Virus record (IMG/VR): IMGVR_UViG_2695420456_000002 | Location: 1-18,835 of that record | From: a virus | Lineage: Duplodnaviria; Heunggongvirae; Uroviricota; Caudoviricetes | Length of the DNA stretch: 18,835 nt | Strand: one strand, 5' to 3' | In this document: in pieces, positions 12,328-18,835 of the stretch | Layout: each line of letters starts with the position of its first letter | How positions within the stretch are numbered: position 1 is the first letter of the stretch | Translations under genes and position numbers: made by a program | The notes under the pieces: model-generated | What the model saw: only the letters and a program-made list of their open reading frames with translations | The model's database searches: none | What the model was told of the DNA's origin: nothing

Positions 12328-12702
12328 TTACCCCAATTGACCGCTCTTGAGCTTTTGTAATAATGAAGCGTCGAAATAACTATCAACCAAAGCAGAGTTA
12401 CGTTCTTCCTCTTTCTTACGAGCAATTTCTTTTATTTCTTCTTGCGTTTTAAATTGCTTGTCGTCCTTAATCATTCGGAATTGGTTAACATTGATTTTAT
12501 TCAACCATTCACGAGTCATGTTAGGAGATGTAACGTGCATGTAATACATCGACTGTGCATGTCGCGCATCTTGATATAGGGGGCTTTGTGGTTCAAGATA
12601 TGTATCGAATATATGCAACGCCCAAAATAGCGTAATTGGCATATTATCCATCTCATCTTTACTCAAGCCCCGACGCATCATTTGCCGAAAATAAAAATTC
12701 AA
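12328..12702 (-). CDS. tail assembly chaperone-like protein (T-like position), 124 aa
   Basis: Starts at a TTG 8 nt after the upstream stop with no nearby SD; lies between the G-like ORF and the tape measure. Confidence 0.4.
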   Translation of the reverse strand: MNFYFRQMMRRGLSKDEMDNMPITLFWALHIFDTYLEPQSPLYQDARHAQSMYYMHVTSPNMTREWLNKINVNQFRMIKDDKQFKTQEEIKEIARKKEEERNSALVDSYFDASLLQKLKSGQLG

Positions 12703-12710
12703 GAGCGGGT

Positions 12711-13019
12711 TTACTTTACCTCGTTTTCAATTACCGCCGCATCTTTCATCAATGATGCTTGAGCAACTAAGCCGATTAATTCGCTGCGGACGCTAGTATA
12801 CAGTGCCTTAACTTGTTCAATAGATTCAAATACTGGCTTACCGTCTTCATCTTCAATACAACGAAGAATAGAGCGTTCATCGCGGTCTTTTTTATCAGTA
12901 TTGAAAACATGTTCATTAAATTCTTGCACCGACATAGGGCGAGCATAGAACGTAAATCCGCCGAGGGTTAAAGATTCACGTTTCGGAGAAAGAGCTTTCA
13001 GCATTTCATTCAGATTCAT
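12711..13019 (-). CDS. tail assembly chaperone (gpG-like position), 102 aa
   Basis: Small acidic ORF immediately upstream of the tape measure region; GAGGA SD upstream of the ATG. Confidence 0.5.
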   Translation of the reverse strand: MNLNEMLKALSPKRESLTLGGFTFYARPMSVQEFNEHVFNTDKKDRDERSILRCIEDEDGKPVFESIEQVKALYTSVRSELIGLVAQASLMKDAAVIENEVK

Positions 13020-13064: not shown

Positions 13065-13571
13065 TTAAGAGATTTTCAAAGTCTGCTTAGTGCCAGTCTT
13101 CTTAATATTTGTTAGGAAAGCAGCCGGAGGATTGCTTAACCAATAGTAATGAAAACCACTTTGCATACTGTTATAAGGAACAGTGACAGCAGCACCACCC
13201 AAATTAACGGTTATATTCCCCGCTCTACCGTTCTGGAGATATACAGCCATAGTAGGAGTACCGCCATTGAATTGACCAACGATAACGCCAACCAGACGCC
13301 CTACGCCCACGTTTTCGGGGTTCTCCATAGATCCTTTGCTTTGCATACCGGAAACAGGATAGTTTGAAGCAGTTACACCCCAGTTATTACCCAATGAAGT
13401 AGACCACGATGCAGTAGCTACAACCGTATCCATACCACGACCAGCCATTGCCGACATATTACGCGGAGCCGGAACTTTTAAAGCTGTTAATGCTTCTTTC
13501 ATCCATCGCTTACCCGTCACCGATACAGCAGATGACCCGATCCAGCCAGGAACTTTAACGACATTTGCCAT
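13065..13571 (-). CDS. hypothetical tail protein, 168 aa (Gly/Ser/Thr-rich, beta-rich composition; possible tail tube or decoration protein)
   Basis: ORF between the putative tube gene and the chaperones; TTGGAGTAATCAAA-ATG start context. Confidence 0.5.
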   Translation of the reverse strand: MANVVKVPGWIGSSAVSVTGKRWMKEALTALKVPAPRNMSAMAGRGMDTVVATASWSTSLGNNWGVTASNYPVSGMQSKGSMENPENVGVGRLVGVIVGQFNGGTPTMAVYLQNGRAGNITVNLGGAAVTVPYNSMQSGFHYYWLSNPPAAFLTNIKKTGTKQTLKIS

Positions 13572-13585
13572 TTTGATTACTCCAA

Positions 13586-13615
13586 TAAAAAAGCCCCACC
13601 ATTAAGGCAGGGCTT
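13586..13615 (-). terminator. rho-independent terminator after the extended tube ORF
   Basis: Minus-strand RNA AAGCCCUGCC-UUAAU-GGUGGGGCUU (10-bp stem with two G-U pairs) followed by UUUUUAUU; sits just downstream of the TAA at 13620-13622. Confidence 0.5.
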
Positions 13616-13619
13616 AAAA

Positions 13620-13745
13620 TTAATTCTTAGCCTTGCGGCCTCGTTTTGCTGTGGCTTTCGCCGTAACTTCTTCTACTTCTGGAATCACCACCGCTTCATG
13701 TTCCGGCAGTGGTTCCGGTTCTGGTAAAGGAAGTTCTTCGTTAGT
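13620..13745 (-). other. in-frame 41-codon open extension downstream of the TGA stop of the putative tail tube gene (candidate readthrough region)
   Basis: After TGA (13746-13748) the same frame reads TNEELPLPEPEPLPEHEAVVIPEVEEVTAKATAKRGRKAKN then TAA; no start codon with an SD within it. Confidence 0.3.
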
Positions 13746-14219
13746 TCATCCGGCAGTGAAGATTTGCTGTTTCAGCGGAGCACCATCAACAGCAAAGGTA
13801 AACTCTTTCGTTACCACTTCTTCATCGCCACCGTTCATAGCAACTTTAGAGATGAAGCCGTTGAAAGCGGTGCGAATACCAGTCTGTTTTGCTGCATCTA
13901 CATAGTATTCAATCTTAATCTGAATTCGAGTACCGTCTTCGGCAGCTTTAATGAGCTTCTCGTGTACCGCATCACCAGGAATGTAGTTAACGGTCAGAGT
14001 CAGATCAGGAACGTTCAGTTTACCTACCAGCTTACGGTTATACTGAGAAGAGAAGGATTTAACTTCTACAGTGCCGCGCTCGATACCAGTTTCAGGAAAA
14101 CCAGCACACTCTTTAATTTCTTCATAGCTTTCATGTGCAAGATCGGTGTTAGTGGTATCGGCGTGATAGAACATACTTACCAGACCACCAGTAAAAATAT
14201 CTTTAAATTGCTGAGACAT
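13746..14219 (-). CDS. putative major tail (tube) protein, 157 aa; alternative: fibre-associated or assembly protein
   Basis: ORF immediately downstream of the tail fibre gene with RBS TAAGGGGTAATTCT-ATG; size and composition compatible with a siphovirus tail tube protein. Assignment uncertain without a search. Confidence 0.4.
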   Translation of the reverse strand: MSQQFKDIFTGGLVSMFYHADTTNTDLAHESYEEIKECAGFPETGIERGTVEVKSFSSQYNRKLVGKLNVPDLTLTVNYIPGDAVHEKLIKAAEDGTRIQIKIEYYVDAAKQTGIRTAFNGFISKVAMNGGDEEVVTKEFTFAVDGAPLKQQIFTAG

Positions 14220-14250: not shown

Positions 14251-14269
14251 CGGGGGAACTAGTCCCCCG
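14251..14269. other. GC-rich hairpin between fibre and tube genes (possible attenuator or processing site)
   Basis: CGGGGGA-ACTAG-TCCCCCG, 7-bp stem; downstream tracts only moderately U-rich on either strand. Confidence 0.3.
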
Positions 14270-14276
14270 ACTTTTA

Positions 14277-17200
14277 TTATTTAGTTGCTTTCAGTTCGGC
14301 AATTTCTTTCTGTAATGCTTCGATCTGTGTTTTATATTTGGCGTCCATTTCCTGCATAGCTTTAATAATCAAGGCATTAACAGCAGAGTTAGAAATAGTC
14401 TTGATTGCTTCCGGTTGTTCTGGATCTTCTGTGGATTGAATACCTACTGCTTCCGGCAATACTTTTTCCAGATCCTGAGCAATAATACCTACTTCGCGTT
14501 TAATCACCGTGTCATCGGAAAGAGATTTAACTTTATCGTAGGTGTAGACTTTCAGTGAGTTTACTTTCTCTAATGCACCGTCCTGTAATTCTTCCTTGTT
14601 AATCTTCAAACGGGAGTCAGAGCGAATGTAAACATCGTTAAAGCTACCGTTACGACCTGCGCTAAAATCACCCGCAGCGTTAAAGTCAAAACCAGCGTCA
14701 TGAACATGAAGTTTAACTGTAGCATTACCGATAGTACCGCTAGGAACATGCACACCCATTGCCGCAATGTGATATTGACCCCAATGTGTAGCTTTCCAGA
14801 TGTTATGAGCGGAATTGGTTGATTGGGGGCAATCAACTTGCAAACCGGAAGCACGGTCACGCCAGCTAGCCCAACTACCACCAGAAACGTTACCGCGAAT
14901 CAAACCTTTATCAGACCCGCCGACGCTACCAGATTCAAGATGAATCATCTTATCCGCAAGTTTCCACGTCTGGGCTTGTTTCTGACCACGGAAGCGAATA
15001 ACACCAGCATCATCGCAGTACATCAAGCCTAACTCTAAACCGTCTGGGTCTCTAAACCAGATGTGTTTATTGCCACTGCGACGAAACTCAATATCTGGAC
15101 CAGTTATCTTAATATTACCGGAAGTTGCGATCCCTTGTGAGTGAATACTGCCATTAACACTAAAGTTAATTTCATTAGTACCAGGACCACCAGCACGCTG
15201 TGTATAGAAATGCCAACCGCTTTCATCAGCAAATTCTAAAACCTGCTTACGGGAGTCGTTGCCCCATACTCGACAGTTGAATGAAGACTGTCCGGTATTT
15301 TTACCCCAAGTAAACTTACCACCAACTTCAAGATCGCCTAAGAAGTTTGCTTTAAGAGCACCTGTACCCATCGCACGTTCTGTGCTAAAATGTCGGCCTT
15401 GACTATCTTCTATGTACAAAACGTTATCACGAGCATTATTGCTATCACCCCAATGATTAAATCGAATATAATCGCGAGATCCAGAACGCCCAGCGTCGAA
15501 AGTCAAAAAACCTTTCTTAATGTAAACGTTATTACTAAAACGAGCGGCACGGCTATCTCTTTCAAGAATTAATGCGCCTTCGTTGCCGTCACCACCTAAA
15601 GTAACTTTACCGTTAGTCAAATCGTAAATGAACGGTCTGTTTCCATTCCACCCGCCCAATTTATCATTTTCGGCAGTAGAAAGAAGATAAACTTTATCAC
15701 CGTCATTACGCCAGAATGCACCATAATTACCGTAGATCATGCGGTAGGCGTCGCTATTCATTGAGATGAATTGAGCGTTAGTATAAACTCGTTTTGTTTT
15801 ACCAGTTGCAAGTTCGATCTGTCCGTCGATGTGGTGACGAATAGAAGTACCACCTACATCGCTATACCATTCAAAAACGTTAGTATCAGCATTGGCATAA
15901 CCGATCCAACCTTGACGCGTAATATCTCCAGTCCGATTATCTTGAAACGCAATATGGTTAGATTGACCAGCAGGACGCCGCAAGGTAATAACATTACTAC
16001 CGCCATTTAACAGCATTCGACCAGAAAGAATATTACCTTTATGAGTCCCAGCAATAGAGCTACTAGATTCAACGGTTAGAATCTCCTGAGCATCTGTACT
16101 ACCCGTGGCGAGTCGATAAGTAGAACCCTGAACCGTCTCATGCCAGATCATTTCATTATAGTTACTACGGAATTTACGAATATATTTCCGTCCAGTACCT
16201 CTATCATTGCTTAGATGAACAATGTCATAGCTGTTTTGTGTATTGTCGTCAAAACTCAACACACCACGTTTATTTTCTGTGTTAAAAAGAGTTACGTTGC
16301 GACCACCGATAACACCAACGGAAGGTTTAATTAACGTGGCTTCCGGCGTATCATAAACCGTCAAACTTACATAAACAGATTTCCCATATTCGACAATAAC
16401 GTTATCGGTATAACGCTGATATTTCACGTAGATATCATAGTTATCACCGGAAGTATTGACAGCAAATACCTCAAAATCTTTGTTTGTATTTCTACGATAT
16501 GCAACTACGTTAAGTCCTTTAGGTCTATCGTTACCACTACGGAGAAGAATTTCTACTACATCAACTTGGTCATATGCCGTAACGTTGTAACCATTACCAC
16601 CATGAATACGGAAAAACACACTACGCCCGTTTTGTGGAATTGTTGCGGTTGCCAATTTGAAATATGCAGATACGTTTTCGCTAGAATTGGGAACAGACAT
16701 AACGACGTTTTTAACAAACATCTTATCAACTTCGGCTTTGGTGTATGCACCAATCTCGCCAGGAGTCGGCTTATCACCTTCGTGATACATCTTATAGCTA
16801 AAGTTCTTCTGTCCTTCTCTATCAAAACCATAGGTTTCAACACGAGATCCACCAGACGCATAACGGAAAGTAAATCCGCGACCGTGCGCTTTACCGGCAG
16901 AATGAGGAACATTAAGAGTTAGATCCATGAGTCCATCTTGTCCATTAGTTCGGAAAGCACCAAAGTAATTAAGATCTCGTGATGTCTGGTCTTCCAGATA
17001 GTTAGCTGTCTTGCTTAACAGATACCCACCATGCTTAGTATTGGTATTCTTCTTGATGTAAAGAGCATCATTGCTACCTTCAATACCATCAATTCGTTTG
17101 TTAGCGGCTGCAATTGCGGCATCAGTAGAAGATTTATTCTGGTCTACCTTGTTGTTAATTGCGGTATGGTTGCTATTAACAGTGCCAGTAAGATTGGTAA

Positions 17201-17891
17201 TCTTAGTATCCGCGTCTTTCTTATTGTCGGAAACAGTCTTTTCGATCGCTGTCTTGTTAGCTGCAACCGTGCTAGTTAAGCTAGAAATTTTGTTATCTGC
17301 ATCGGTTTTATTTGCAGTAACAGTTTTAGTTAAGTTGCTAACGTTGGTGTTAGTGGTATTAACCTTGTTGTTAATCGCGGTGTTATTGTCAGTGACCGTT
17401 TTCGTTAAAGCTGCATGTTTGCTATCTGCATCAGATTTGTTTGCGGCAACGGTTCTTTCAATTGCGGTCTTATTCGCAGATACGGTCCCCGTAAGGTTAT
17501 TGATCTTAGTGTCGGCATCGGTTTTATTTGCCGTAACTGTCTGGGTTAAGTTACTAACAGTGGTGTTGGTAGCATCAATGCGCTTATTGGTTGCGGTGTC
17601 TTTAGTGGTAATAGTCTGATTCAGTTCAGCTTTAGCACTAGCCAGATTATTAGCGGCCTCTTGTTTGTTGGAAGCAATAACACGGTCAGTGCTAGTTTTG
17701 TTATTGTCTACTTTAGTGTTAAGTTCAGCGTGTTTTTCTGGAGAAACACTAATTTGGACTACGTTATTATTTTTGTCTTTGGTGTAAATCACATGGTCCG
17801 CCAGTTGTAAGGCGATCTCACCCTGTGATAATTGTTCCGGCGTCGGCTTTTTACCAGCCGTTTGTGTGCGTTTAAATTGGATTGATTGCAT
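14277..17891 (-). CDS. side (L-shaped-like) tail fibre protein with C-terminal intramolecular chaperone (peptidase S74) domain, 1204 aa
   Basis: N-terminal fibre motif (KRTQTAGKKPTPEQLSQGEIALQLAD), tandem Thr/Asn/Lys-rich shaft repeats, internal KPTPGEIGAYTKAEVD fibre repeat, and C-terminal ...YIRSDSRLKINKEEL...VYTYDK...EVGIIAQDLEKVLPEAV matching the autoproteolytic chaperone-of-endosialidase signature. Double stop TAATAA. Confidence 0.8.
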   Translation of the reverse strand: MQSIQFKRTQTAGKKPTPEQLSQGEIALQLADHVIYTKDKNNNVVQISVSPEKHAELNTKVDNNKTSTDRVIASNKQEAANNLASAKAELNQTITTKDTATNKRIDATNTTVSNLTQTVTANKTDADTKINNLTGTVSANKTAIERTVAANKSDADSKHAALTKTVTDNNTAINNKVNTTNTNVSNLTKTVTANKTDADNKISSLTSTVAANKTAIEKTVSDNKKDADTKITNLTGTVNSNHTAINNKVDQNKSSTDAAIAAANKRIDGIEGSNDALYIKKNTNTKHGGYLLSKTANYLEDQTSRDLNYFGAFRTNGQDGLMDLTLNVPHSAGKAHGRGFTFRYASGGSRVETYGFDREGQKNFSYKMYHEGDKPTPGEIGAYTKAEVDKMFVKNVVMSVPNSSENVSAYFKLATATIPQNGRSVFFRIHGGNGYNVTAYDQVDVVEILLRSGNDRPKGLNVVAYRRNTNKDFEVFAVNTSGDNYDIYVKYQRYTDNVIVEYGKSVYVSLTVYDTPEATLIKPSVGVIGGRNVTLFNTENKRGVLSFDDNTQNSYDIVHLSNDRGTGRKYIRKFRSNYNEMIWHETVQGSTYRLATGSTDAQEILTVESSSSIAGTHKGNILSGRMLLNGGSNVITLRRPAGQSNHIAFQDNRTGDITRQGWIGYANADTNVFEWYSDVGGTSIRHHIDGQIELATGKTKRVYTNAQFISMNSDAYRMIYGNYGAFWRNDGDKVYLLSTAENDKLGGWNGNRPFIYDLTNGKVTLGGDGNEGALILERDSRAARFSNNVYIKKGFLTFDAGRSGSRDYIRFNHWGDSNNARDNVLYIEDSQGRHFSTERAMGTGALKANFLGDLEVGGKFTWGKNTGQSSFNCRVWGNDSRKQVLEFADESGWHFYTQRAGGPGTNEINFSVNGSIHSQGIATSGNIKITGPDIEFRRSGNKHIWFRDPDGLELGLMYCDDAGVIRFRGQKQAQTWKLADKMIHLESGSVGGSDKGLIRGNVSGGSWASWRDRASGLQVDCPQSTNSAHNIWKATHWGQYHIAAMGVHVPSGTIGNATVKLHVHDAGFDFNAAGDFSAGRNGSFNDVYIRSDSRLKINKEELQDGALEKVNSLKVYTYDKVKSLSDDTVIKREVGIIAQDLEKVLPEAVGIQSTEDPEQPEAIKTISNSAVNALIIKAMQEMDAKYKTQIEALQKEIAELKATK
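14280..14621 (-). other. intramolecular chaperone / S74 autoprotease domain of the tail fibre
   Basis: Last 114 residues, starting at the SDSRLK motif. Confidence 0.6.
17142..17570. repeat. tandem coding repeats (two units of about 213 bp / 71 aa with internal shorter periodicity) in the fibre shaft
   Basis: TNTTVSNLTQTVTANKTDADTKINNLTGTVSANKTAIERTV... repeated as TNTNVSNLTKTVTANKTDADNKISSLTSTVAANKTAIEKTV...; the antisense strand yields the spurious hydrophobic ORF 17071..17619. Confidence 0.6.
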
Positions 17892-17973: not shown

Positions 17974-18696
17974 TTAGTATTCGCCGAAATCGATCCGGTC
18001 AGTCTTAGCCACTGCGCCAATTTCGGCTGGCGTTGGTTTCTCATTGGTGGAATATACCTTGATCCATTCCGACTTCCCATTTTCCTGGATATTTCGTACC
18101 CGCAAACGTGGAGCACCGGAAGTATTACACGTTAATTGCCATGCGCCATGCTCATTAGCTTGAAGATGAATTAACGATGTATCAGCACCATAAGGGTTAG
18201 TGCTAGCCGTTCCTTTGTAGGTTACGAAGCGGTTTCCTGTCAGAGATTCACTATCAATAGGTCCGGTGAATGGGCTAACGCCTGAGCCTACGCCATAATC
18301 CCCTTGTCGCAGAATTTTTCCCTCGGTCGCTATACCCCTTGCTAGAATCCCGCCATCTGGTTCAAGTTTAAATTCCAGTGTTACAGCTTTGTTATCTGCG
18401 CCACGGGTTTTGTGACTAGTGACATAAGCGTCATAGATGACATAGTAACCAGTGTTAGCAGCACTATAGCCAGAGTTCACAACATAGAACATACGGAAGC
18501 GTAAAGGTGTTTTATCCTCTACCGCTTTCATCAACATTGCTTGATGTTCATCGTCAAGAACACGGTTTAATGTGAGTGTTGTCGGTTCCAGTCTACGATA
18601 ACCAGCAAGTTTCCCCGTAGCGTCCTGATCGTACTCTTCCAGAGTTTCTATCTCTGTGGATTCGGTTAGAGTAGGGAATGCTGCGATGTTCTCCAT
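17974..18696 (-). CDS. tail fibre-associated protein, 240 aa, with C-terminal phage-fibre-type repeat
   Basis: ATG at 18694-18696 with an in-frame TAG 11 codons upstream; weak SD. C-terminus [24 protein letters not shown] matches the KPTPxEIGA repeat also present twice in the adjacent fibre. Confidence 0.5.
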
Positions 18697-18759
18697 AGAA
18701 CTAAAGCTAGGATCGAAAAAGTCGACCTAGACTGGCCCCCTGAATCTCCAGACAACCAG

Positions 18760-18779
18760 TATCACTTAAATAAGTGATA
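18760..18779. promoter_or_regulatory. 20-bp palindrome TATCACTTA-AA-TAAGTGATA in a divergent intergenic region (candidate operator)
   Basis: Perfect 9-bp arms; the outer hexamers TATCAC/GTGATA equal the lambda-type operator half-site but with different spacing. Lies between the minus-strand gene starting at 18696 and a possible plus-strand start (GGAG at 18810-18813, ATG at 18819). Confidence 0.35.
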
Positions 18780-18835
18780 GTCTTAATACTAGTTTTTAGA
18801 CTAGTCATTGGAGAACAGATGATTGATGTCTTAGG

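Follow-up and report, generated by a model that had tools for sequence, protein, structure and literature searches.

A conserved UGA-ended cassette on the tail tube and capsid genes of an Escherichia coli prophage, a candidate for programmed stop-codon readthrough

A tail tube gene that ends in UGA and remains open in the same frame for a further 41 codons raises the question of whether this stop is simply the end of the gene or a site at which some ribosomes are programmed to continue. The gene lies on the minus strand of an 18,835-nt stretch of viral DNA, analysed here as a whole and referred to as the window. The features at the 3' end of the gene are the following:

13749..14219, minus strand: tail tube (major tail) protein gene, 157 sense codons; assigned from PHROG, Pfam, Foldseek and gene order
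13746..13748, minus strand: in-frame UGA stop, the proposed readthrough site; TGA in 60/60 loci of the clade (see below)
13736..13745, minus strand: 10-nt spacer ACUAACGAAG, whose first codon, ACU, provides the +4 A
13623..13745, minus strand: in-frame extension of 41 codons, open in frame 0 only in every haplotype
13620..13622, minus strand: second stop, UAA, ending the extension five bases ahead of the terminator hairpin
13587..13615, minus strand: intrinsic terminator, a G+C-rich hairpin of 10 bp with a T-run after it, from a pattern scan

The tube protein matches PHROG 158, "major tail protein" (E = 6e-21), and scores 28.2 bits, just below the cut-off of 28.4, with the Pfam family Phage_TTP_11 (PF16460). 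Profile searching of PDB sequences with the tube family returned no match, and the tube fold was recognised through a fold search: with the AlphaFold model as query, the top Foldseek matches were the tail tubes of NF5, YDC107, lambda (gpV) and 80alpha, with probability 1.0. The gene order (tube, a gp38-like adhesin, tail chaperone, tape measure) places the gene just upstream of the chaperone and tape-measure genes. The same prophage carries a second, 277-aa tube paralogue, which, where the 157-aa protein stops, runs on into a constitutive C-terminal domain of some 115 aa. No match to the region was obtained by megablast against GenBank phages, and a scan of genome contigs yielded no relatives; DCP80, the nearest phage isolate, shows only 44-45% identity and has no such cassette. 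The host of the prophage is E. coli, with 39EVA and 24AR0357 among the carrier strains; in the copy used for context (strain PI7) the terminase is annotated as frameshifted.

The sequence reads as the earlier note on this DNA had described it. The ORF, stop included, spans 13746..14219 on the minus strand and encodes 157 aa; its TGA, at 13748-13746, has A as the +4 base and is followed by 41 open codons and a TAA. The encoded extension (13745-13623) is TNEELPLPEPEPLPEHEAVVIPEVEEVTAKATAKRGRKAKN, an acidic Pro/Glu linker leading through VVIPEVEEV to a basic tail, AKATAKRGRKAKN, and is predicted to be disordered (pLDDT <50). The hairpin and T-run found by the pattern scan, at 13615-13587, do lie after the extension and not after the TGA, and the 174-nt gap between the tube gene and the next gene is the largest in the tail module. 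Among the 18 minus-strand genes of the window the tube gene is the only one to end in TGA, the other 17 ending in TAA. Inspection of codon alignments revealed neither an ATG nor a Shine-Dalgarno-like sequence for the extension itself. The caution that an open frame of this length might arise by chance was well placed: at this base composition, 41 open codons have a probability of about 0.07 in a single sequence, which is not significant, and it is the comparison with related loci that takes the extension beyond chance. A Pfam search with the extension gave no match, nor did tblastn, and no homologue of the peptide turned up in 5.8 billion proteins or in 1.84 billion cluster representatives, so that its function is without an anchor.

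The comparison included 60 tube loci (the clade, window included) drawn from E. coli chromosomes, IMG/VR, Logan and ENA, and both the TGA, as TGA-ACT, and the open frame-0 extension are conserved in 60/60 of them. The tube genes of these assemblies reach a synonymous divergence of 0.6, the codon ahead of the TGA varies (GGA, GGC, GGT, GCT or TCT), and the downstream gene and the terminator differ in some lineages. The extension measures 33, 36, 39, 40 or 41 codons, implying that all indels within it are multiples of three. Frames +1 and +2 carry stops in every haplotype. The string TGAACT..CGAAGAAC is invariant over the 18 tube haplotypes, although synonymous options existed. In sister lineages of the tube gene, 8/8 of those examined end in TAA. 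Relatives in Salmonella, Providencia and Edwardsiella have tube genes that end in TAA and encode short basic C-terminal tails (...ARK, ...VIPEAVAAKEK); the resemblance is no more than suggestive of homology with the extension.

The earlier impression that the extension looks like protein agrees with coding selection specific to frame 0. When haplotypes L029 and L030 are compared with L025, L052 and L019, frame 0 gives an omega of 0.15-0.22, against 0.9-4.0 for the other frames and 0.25 for the tube gene itself. In the deepest comparison, whose coding signal is carried essentially by one long branch, third codon positions account for 11 of the 16 differences, and only 4 alter the amino acid (simulation P = 8e-5). 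Among the long-type haplotypes alone, omega is only about 0.4; the pooled dN/dS of 0.41 was uninformative by itself, the signal coming from the deep split between lineages, and synonymous divergence is low. The latter amounts to 0.13 in the long-type extension against 0.30 in the tube gene, a conservation to which constraint on the RNA, or a more recent genealogy of this stretch, contributes. On the evidence of these substitution patterns, the selection acting on the extension is of the coding type and specific to the tube frame.

A homologous cassette is found at the major capsid gene of the same prophage (Peptidase_S78 plus Phage_capsid domains), which lies outside the window. It consists of TGA-A, a Pro/Glu-then-basic extension and a near-identical terminator; the tube and capsid extensions share 50% identity over 40 aa (tblastn E = 3e-5). 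Throughout the 21 genes of the prophage late module, TGA stops occur only at the capsid and tube genes, in both cases as TGA-ACT followed by 41-42 open codons. Close capsid relatives all keep TGA-A (TGA-ACT or TGA-AAT) together with an open extension of 28-45 codons (33/33), while distant ones end in TAA in 45/46 cases and have a cassette-like extension in 0/46. Taking the two cassettes together, 41 distinct haplotypes are available, in which frame 0 is never closed and all indels are multiples of three. The acidic linker and the basic end persist where nucleotide sequence, C-terminal end and terminator all differ, the ends being KRGRKAKN, KRSRKAKD, KRGRK, KRGRKSRK, KKQRKTKE or KKVGRPPKAK. An AT-hook identity for the basic tail was considered and dropped, since the only match to the Pfam AT_hook family, that of the capsid variant ...KKVGRPPKAK, falls below the cut-off (13.3 vs 17.4 bits, E = 0.079); the tail of the window's tube extension, KRGRKAKN, gives no match to this family. 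The terminator of the tube gene is of the capsid-cassette type (AGCCCTGCC..GGTGGGGCTTTTTT), different from those of the sister tube genes (AGCCATCCTTCGGGGTGGCT). The tube cassette, with its terminator, looks to have been copied from that of the capsid gene.

Between the stop and the terminator, the transcript is predicted to fold as follows:

13730..13735, minus strand: 5' arm of a conserved stem, AACUUC, starting exactly 10 nt after the UGA; from RNAalifold, pair counts and an offset scan
13665..13670, minus strand: 3' arm of the stem, GAAGUU, pairing with the 5' arm and ending just before the ACGGCGAAAGCC anchor
13672..13728, minus strand: hairpin interior, from minimum-free-energy folds
13653..13662, minus strand: small hairpin GGC-GAAA-GCC within the AKA codons, its loop of GNRA type; from RNAalifold

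The stem was predicted independently by RNAalifold. Two of its pairs switch from UA to AU on both sides, and the observed score was reached by 0/500 shuffles. When the spacer length was scanned, an average of 5.83 of the 6 pairs formed in the tube cassette at a spacer of 10 and at most 3.7 at any other offset; the capsid cassette gives 5.33/6, again at the 10-nt offset only. At least six different arm pairs are found over the two cassettes (AACUUC/GAAGUU, AACAAC/GUUGUU, AACAGC/GUUGUU, AACCUU/GAGGUU, AAUUGC/GUAGUU and AAUCGC/GUGAUU), and 2/18 tube haplotypes (L012 and L020) have a stem with two broken pairs. Folds are more stable than those of shuffled sequences, with z = -2.7 to -3.1. The interior contains a second helix, in which UUUAC (13728-13724) pairs with GUAGA (13676-13672), and, in the long-type sequence, additional inner helices; these tentatively modelled helices are particular to each sequence type. 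The small hairpin, whose GGC-GAAA-GCC motif also occurs in the capsid cassette, shows a CG-to-AU change on both sides in four haplotypes (GGAGAAAUCC); it could be a by-product of the codons used. An Rfam search produced two matches only, both at chance level.

These observations are probably best explained by programmed readthrough of the UGA, which would yield minor, C-terminally tagged isoforms of the tube and capsid proteins. Of the stops, TGA leaks most in E. coli, where it is read mainly as Trp (PMC11126739; PMC10570021). Most ribosomes would stop at the UGA, giving the 157-aa tube protein, and in a minority a near-cognate tRNA, expected to be tRNA-Trp in E. coli, would read the stop and let translation proceed through 41 more codons. 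The product would be a tube isoform about 4.5 kDa larger, carrying a flexible acidic Pro/Glu linker with a Lys/Arg-rich tip; with Trp inserted, the junctions would read QQIFTAG-W-TNEELPLPEPEPLPEHEAVVIPEVEEVTAK in the tube and VLHISAE-W-TPVEPSEPSPDLGEENLIPEPEEESQTVK in the capsid protein. We infer a signal of three parts, made up of the weak UGA-A context (UGA-ACU), the conserved 10-nt spacer and the RNA stem lying 10 nt past the stop, which may stimulate the event; UAA and the strong terminator would close the cassette. Extended subunits incorporated into the virion from both genes would place the same kind of low-copy tag on head and tail. As to what the tag might do, a surface whisker binding polyanions such as LPS, capsule or DNA is a speculative guess.

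Other routes into the extension were considered and rejected. Frameshifting does not apply, the extension being in frame 0 and the other two frames closed. Stop-hopping is disfavoured by a variable last sense codon and by the lack of visible matched take-off and landing codons. An ATG overlapping the stop (GGATGA) opens an ORF of 2 codons only and is missing where the last codon is GCT, GGC or GGT. Neither the window nor a 50-kb stretch containing the whole prophage has a tRNA gene, and hence no suppressor tRNA is encoded by the phage. The readthrough proposed in the earlier note is thus supported, every testable sequence-level prediction (conservation of the TGA, of the +4 A and of the frame, selection specific to that frame, no visible start signal in the extension, no suppressor tRNA, and a stop hexamer shared with a Qbeta-type phage) having turned out positive, though it is not proven.

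The rival explanations differ in how much of this evidence they can absorb. That the TGA represents a recent nonsense mutation, the remnant of a longer tube gene turned pseudogene, or a sequencing error, as the earlier note had allowed, might be thought from the single sequence and from the presence in a public database of a 198-aa "fused" protein, P0002. The latter was entertained as a natural stop-less fusion and rejected, for its DNA has TGA at this place and the protein results from a gene call made with genetic code table 4; a version with a sense codon is absent from the 5.8 billion proteins and 1.84 billion representatives. With TGA present in 60/60 independent assemblies whose tube genes diverge by up to 0.6 at synonymous sites, and with the extension under purifying selection, this alternative is refuted by the conservation of stop and frame, and we give it almost no probability. 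Decoding of the UGA as selenocysteine, the downstream hairpin serving as a bacterial SECIS, would account for the identity of the codon, in a host that has the machinery, and for a hairpin beginning some 11 nt past the UGA, roughly the distance at which the minimal SECIS of E. coli fdhF sits. Between sequence types, however, what the stem encloses varies in size from a GAAA loop of 4 nt up to about 60 nt, the arms are free to change in sequence, and indels shift the distance from the UGA to every inner helix; by inspection, no conserved SelB-binding apical loop or bulge is apparent, and Rfam gave no match. It is moreover hard to see what selenocysteine would do where a disordered linker begins, and we consider its use here very improbable.

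The two remaining alternatives, to each of which we assign the same low probability, accept the conservation and differ on what is conserved. One holds that the sequence belongs to the 3'-UTR of the tube mRNA and has a non-coding role, for example in stabilising or processing the message, in enhancing termination or as a 3'-UTR-derived small RNA, and that the open frame is incidental. It fits the conserved, covarying stems, the stability of the folds relative to shuffles (z = -2.7 to -3.1), the synonymous divergence of the long-type extension being below that of the tube gene (0.13 against 0.30) and the terminator with its U-tail downstream. Structure alone, however, does not produce third-position periodicity in one frame, nor can it explain why omega is 0.15 in frame 0 yet exceeds 1 in the others; neither does it fit a frame that stays open in all 41 haplotypes of two cassettes with indels in multiples of three, a peptide character kept despite differing nucleotides, C-terminal ends and terminators, or the absence of any Rfam family beyond chance. 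Most likely RNA structure and coding coexist, and only the version with RNA acting alone competes with readthrough. The other alternative makes the extension a separate small gene, expressed from a non-canonical start or by reinitiation after the UGA as a free acidic/basic peptide of about 4 kDa. Coding-type conservation shows that the extension is translated but does not show that it is fused, and a GTG codon (the V of VIPE) is conserved within the extension. Against this, the codon alignments have no ATG or Shine-Dalgarno-like sequence ahead of any candidate start, and it is upstream of the conserved GTG that synonymous changes and every in-frame indel are located, which means that the stretch directly after the UGA is held in the tube frame too. 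The in-frame link to an upstream gene, furthermore, recurs in a second, independent context, that of the capsid (33/33 loci), and a separate gene gives no reason for a TGA-A stop upstream of it in an otherwise TAA-using genome.

A bolder form of the readthrough explanation, which we advance tentatively and think somewhat improbable as a whole, is that the cassette might be a portable, actively stimulated readthrough signal for bacterial ribosomes, copied from capsid to tube, that displays a polyanion-binding peptide in a few copies on head and tail. The display level would then track host physiology, since temperature, nutrients and cAMP all influence how often UGA is read through in E. coli. 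To our knowledge no bacterial readthrough signal other than that for selenocysteine has been described as using a 3' structure; a stimulatory role of the stem would thus be without precedent and, were this reading true, the cassette would be the first prokaryotic element, selenocysteine signals aside, in which a 3' RNA structure stimulates readthrough.

In the literature searched, we found no account of a tailed DNA phage that uses readthrough on its tube or capsid gene; recoding of phage structural genes has been described as frameshifting, and readthrough of a leaky stop as a device of RNA phages such as Qbeta. If confirmed, the present case would make stop-codon readthrough one of the devices available to tailed dsDNA phages, with one tag set on capsid and tube through duplication of a small cassette. 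It would also provide a compact natural bacterial readthrough element of about 150 nt with a candidate RNA stimulator, which could be useful for low-copy display on phage particles. An annotation gap would be exposed as well, because gene callers never report such extensions: RefSeq leaves 174-193 nt as "intergenic" at this place, and the sole database protein containing the extension is the call made with the wrong genetic code.

One of the closest parallels is the A1 protein of the E. coli RNA phage Qbeta, made by readthrough of a leaky UGA that ends the coat gene. In the Qbeta-type record NC_001890, the coat gene stop lies in the context UAC-UGA-ACU and is annotated as leaky, with readthrough at about 5% chance. 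The likeness extends to the host translation system, the UGA-ACU hexamer, the location on a major structural protein gene and a Pro-rich flexible linker opening the extension; here too, a minor subunit with an extended C-terminus would assemble together with the major one. The differences are that Qbeta is an ssRNA levivirus and the present element belongs to a tailed dsDNA prophage, in which paralogous cassettes occupy two genes, capsid and tube. The readthrough CDS of the Qbeta-type record measures 990 nt against 402 nt for the coat CDS, thus about 196 extra codons, as compared with 28-45 residues, predicted to be disordered, in our case. The Qbeta extension forms a folded domain. A conserved stem stands 10 nt past the stop in the prophage, and we know of none described at such a position in Qbeta.

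Comparable as well are the Listeria phages PSA, A118 and A500, whose capsid and tail genes are both recoded at the 3' end (Atkins et al. 2016, PMC5009743; Zinke et al. 2022, PMC8718954). The prophage would share with these phages, as with SPP1 gp17.1* and the T7/T3 capsid protein 10B, a recoding event near the end of the genes for the most abundant virion proteins, which in those systems yields a fixed minority of C-terminally extended subunits. They do so by +1 or -1 frameshifting at slippery sites, however, whereas the present extension lies in frame 0 behind a stop with the other frames closed; and the extensions of T3, A2 and SPP1 are folded Ig-like or FN3 domains, unlike the short, charged and predicted disordered one found here.

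As regards the RNA, readthrough signals of alphaviruses, tobraviruses and MuLV comprise a stop, a spacer of 7-12 nt and a stem that is backed by compensatory substitutions and closes off a "loop" of variable make-up (Firth et al. 2011, PMC3159437). The 10-nt spacer and the stem of the prophage cassettes are of the same kind. The viral signals operate on eukaryotic ribosomes with eRF1 and have stems of 10-14 bp; here the ribosome would be bacterial (RF2) and the conserved closing stem has only 6-7 bp, plus inner helices that differ by sequence type. We know of no experimentally demonstrated bacterial counterpart of structure-stimulated readthrough other than SECIS. Finally, lambda gpV has the same tube fold, with the C-terminus as the site that tolerates additions. 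Its C-terminal domain, which is Ig-like, is constitutive, whereas in the present tube protein the addition would be conditional on passing a stop.

The 157-aa gene is a tail tube gene. Its product hits PHROG 158 ('major tail protein') with E = 6e-21 and scores slightly below the cut-off for Pfam Phage_TTP_11; Foldseek places an AlphaFold model, confident in its tube domain (pLDDT 80-90), closest to the PDB structures of the NF5, YDC107, lambda (gpV) and 80alpha tail tubes. Downstream come genes for a gp38-like adhesin, a pair of tail assembly chaperones and an 809-aa tape measure. Re-reading of the sequence bore out the earlier note's description of the 3' end of the gene:

13746..14219, minus strand: tail-tube ORF, 157 aa, ending in TGA with A as the next base
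to TAA at 13622-13620, minus strand: extension of 41 codons in the frame of the tube ORF, TNEELPLPEPEPLPEHEAVVIPEVEEVTAKATAKRGRKAKN
13615-13587, minus strand: terminator hairpin 3' of the extension, 10 pairs, G+C-rich, followed by a T-run

The 174-nt gap following the tube gene is the largest in the module. At this base composition 41 open codons would occur by chance with a probability of about 0.07, so that the caution expressed on this point was well placed: the open frame of a single sequence carries no significance. Stop-codon usage is extremely biased in the window and in the corresponding prophage of E. coli strain PI7 alike. Among the 18 minus-strand genes of the window, the tube gene alone ends in TGA and the other 17 in TAA; the 34 genes of the PI7 prophage (positions 8127-43030 of the sequence L059) use TAA 28 times, TAG 0 times and TGA six times, capsid and tube genes included.

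The window represents an E. coli prophage: an 801-base query that spans the tube gene is 99.8% identical to sequences in strains PI7 and 24AR0357. The PI7 element measures about 35 kb, carries a large serine recombinase (559 aa) and lies inside hicB, splitting this antitoxin gene into two segments (L059 7971-8090 and 43223-43531); its annotation marks the terminase gene as frameshifted. At its left end (191-1982) the window is unlike PI7 and holds two ORFs, one of 239 aa, whose match to an integrase family is limited to the family's C-terminal part, and one of 332 aa that is endonuclease-like. None of the isolated phages searched in GenBank closely resembles this prophage.

Comparison of orthologues, which the earlier note had proposed as a check, was made on 60 loci including the window, drawn from complete E. 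coli chromosomes and from IMG/VR, Logan, ENA and NCBI assemblies, with tube proteins 83-99% identical to the window's. TGA is followed by ACT in 60/60 loci, and in all of them the in-frame extension is open, over 33, 36, 39, 40 or 41 codons. The last sense codon before TGA varies (GGA, GGC, GGT, GCT, TCT), and some lineages have a different downstream gene and a different terminator behind the extension. By comparison, all eight sister tube lineages examined (from E. coli, Salmonella, Edwardsiella, Hafniaceae, one unassigned Logan contig and phage DCP80; 44-74% identical where measured) end in TAA with a terminator immediately after, and lack the extension. A 198-aa database protein (P0002) resembling a natural tube-extension fusion was rejected as such: its DNA (positions 41-637 of ENA contig k141_243218) has TGA at the junction, and the protein, with W at the stop, exists solely because genes on this short contig were called with genetic code table 4. 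Since TGA and the open extension are conserved across the clade, and the DNA of P0002 itself has TGA, a nonsense mutation or sequencing error in an originally longer gene is excluded.

The pattern of substitutions indicates that the extension is under selection as protein. The deepest two lineages of the short type differ at 16 of 99 nucleotides, 11 of them at codon position 3, with an amino acid altered in only four codons; random placement of the same substitutions gave an equally good result in 8 of 100,000 trials. Nei-Gojobori counting for deep pairs puts omega at 0.15-0.22 in frame 0 and at 0.9-4.0 in the remaining frames, compared with 0.25 for the tube gene in the same pairs. Every indel in the extension, located right after the UGA, is a multiple of three, and frames +1 and +2 contain stops in every haplotype. 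The character of the peptide is kept despite differing nucleotides and 3' flank: a Pro/Glu stretch of acidic character leads into the (V/T)VIPE core, and the end is basic (KRGRKAKN, KRSRKAKD, KRGRK, KRGRKSRK or KRGRKTK). Inspection showed no ATG and no Shine-Dalgarno-like sequence ahead of the extension, and no tRNA gene is found in the window or in the stretch containing the whole prophage. Together, these features make translation from the tube gene through the UGA the simplest reading, and the readthrough suggested in the earlier note appears well founded on strong comparative evidence.

When the prophage was searched at low stringency with the extension peptide, a second match appeared directly 3' of the major capsid gene:

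outside the window: major capsid gene, 666 aa, identified by Peptidase_S78 and Phage_capsid domain matches
L059 28987-29121, minus strand: TGA-ACT, 42 in-frame codons TPVEPSEPSPDLGEENLIPEPEEESQTVKAKATAKKQRKTKE, TAA TAA and a near-identical terminator

Across 40 residues the capsid and tube extensions share 50% identity (tblastn E = 3e-5). Among close capsid relatives in IMG/VR (88-100% identity), 33/33 have a TGA with A as the next base (in ACT or AAT), and their extensions are open for 28, 42, 43, 44 or 45 codons. Distant capsids (35-50% identity) end in TAA in 45/46 cases and in TGA-TAG in the other one, and a cassette-like extension is absent from all 46. Both cassettes occur together on at least 15 IMG/VR contigs, and within the 21-gene late module of PI7 TGA is used by the capsid and tube genes only. 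The capsid cassette is the more widely distributed of the two, since a sister prophage carries it and yet has a tube gene ending in TAA without an extension. The terminator of the tube cassette is of the capsid type, unlike that of the sister tubes; judged from this likeness, the whole cassette at the end of the tube gene looks like a copy of the one behind the capsid gene. In DCP80, the nearest isolated phage, the capsid gene stops at TAA (L001 567-700) and is followed by a 28-codon ORF in a different frame, with its own ATG overlapping in TAATG, and then by a terminator; its product, Ala/Pro-rich and basic at the end (PVKKSKSASG), could be an analogous tag made by another route.

RNAalifold, applied to 18 tube haplotypes, predicts a stem behind the stop:

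13735-13730 and 13670-13665, minus strand: stem arms AACUUC and GAAGUU

In short-type sequences, two pairs of this stem show A-U in place of U-A, both sides having changed. This covariation was reached by 0/500 shuffles, and sliding the partner column destroyed the pairing. In both cassettes, an offset scan showed that the six bases starting exactly 10 nt past the UGA pair with the six preceding an anchor, A(C/A/U)GG(C/A/U)G(A/G)AA, found after the 3' arm. Mean pairing at this spacing is 5.83/6 in 23 tube haplotypes and 5.33/6 in 18 capsid haplotypes, against no more than 3.7/6 at the remaining spacings from 6 to 15 nt. At least six distinct complementary arm pairs occur across the cassettes; the stem is broken at two pairs in 2 of 18 tube haplotypes. 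What the stem encloses varies from a GAAA tetraloop, in the 28-codon capsid type, to some 60 structured nucleotides. A small hairpin 3' of the stem, GGC-GAAA-GCC, has one compensatory variant and could be a side effect of codon choice. A SECIS element is disfavoured because the apex of the stem varies freely; a search of Rfam with the RNA element found nothing. Readthrough stimulators of eukaryotic viruses consist of a 7-12 nt spacer and then a covarying stem (PMC3159437), the same architecture as that of the cassettes. The stem is a candidate stimulator of readthrough.

The tube gene is flanked by a T-even-type long tail fibre gene (14277-17891; Gp34_trimer and S74 chaperone domains) and, on its other side, by the gp38-like gene (13065-13571), both housed in a siphovirus-like tail module. 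The gp38 gene is missing in some relatives (L021), and others (L029-L032) have a 422-aa gene after the cassette instead. Between fibre and tube genes, a perfect 7-bp G+C-rich palindromic hairpin (CGGGGGA-CTAGT-TCCCCCG, 14251-14269) scores as terminator-like on the plus strand only, opposite to the genes. The chaperone ORF (12711..13019) and the next ORF (12328..12702), both on the minus strand, show a lambda G/GT-like arrangement and are annotated as two separate genes in RefSeq; the -1 frame of the chaperone is open only from 12726, leaving a 13-nt overlap with GGUAAAG-UAA as the sole possible -1 slip site (12702-12730). A second tube-fold gene lies upstream of the fibre gene (17974-18835, minus strand; L059 27386-28219). 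The PI7 version, 277 aa in length, shows 30% identity to the 157-aa tube throughout the tube domain (E = 7e-16) and has in addition a C-terminal domain, constitutive and about 115 aa long. In the window copy the N-terminal 30 codons or so diverge, apparently in another frame, and the first in-frame start gives only 240 aa; this could reflect a frameshift, a different start or misassembly.

UGA is the leakiest stop in E. coli and is decoded mainly as Trp, at a rate that varies with temperature, nutrients and cAMP (PMC11126739, PMC10570021). In the Qbeta-type record NC_001890 the coat gene stop stands in the context UAC-UGA-ACU, sharing the UGA-ACU hexamer with the cassette; the annotation describes leaky readthrough with a chance of about 5%, and the extension opens with a Pro-rich linker. 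On these two grounds we propose that a small proportion of ribosomes would place Trp at the UGA and append the 41-residue tail to the tube protein. A level of a few per cent is a guess drawn from the Qbeta-type annotation, and the stem may raise or set it. The extension is disordered in the AlphaFold model and has no homologue in the protein databases searched. In T7 capsid protein 10B and lambda gpV, what is added at the C-terminus points outward, and by analogy the tag might be displayed on the particle surface; in the prophage's own 277-aa paralogue the constitutive domain begins at the same C-terminal point. The 809-aa tape measure roughly suggests a tail of about 30 hexameric rings, or some 180 tube subunits, so that 1-5% readthrough would give a few tagged subunits per tail. 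An AT-hook-like match is weak, below the Pfam cut-off and confined to some capsid variants.

No description of a comparable case was found in the full-text literature searched, a limited collection. In function, the feature comes nearest to the Qbeta A1 protein and to the long isoforms of major capsid and tail proteins that PSA, A118, A500, SPP1 (gp17.1*) and T7 (10B) make by frameshifting (PMC5009743, PMC8718954). Unlike these, the presumed readthrough occurs here in a tailed dsDNA prophage, two genes carry copies of the cassette, the tag is short and predicted to be disordered, and a conserved 3' stem is present.
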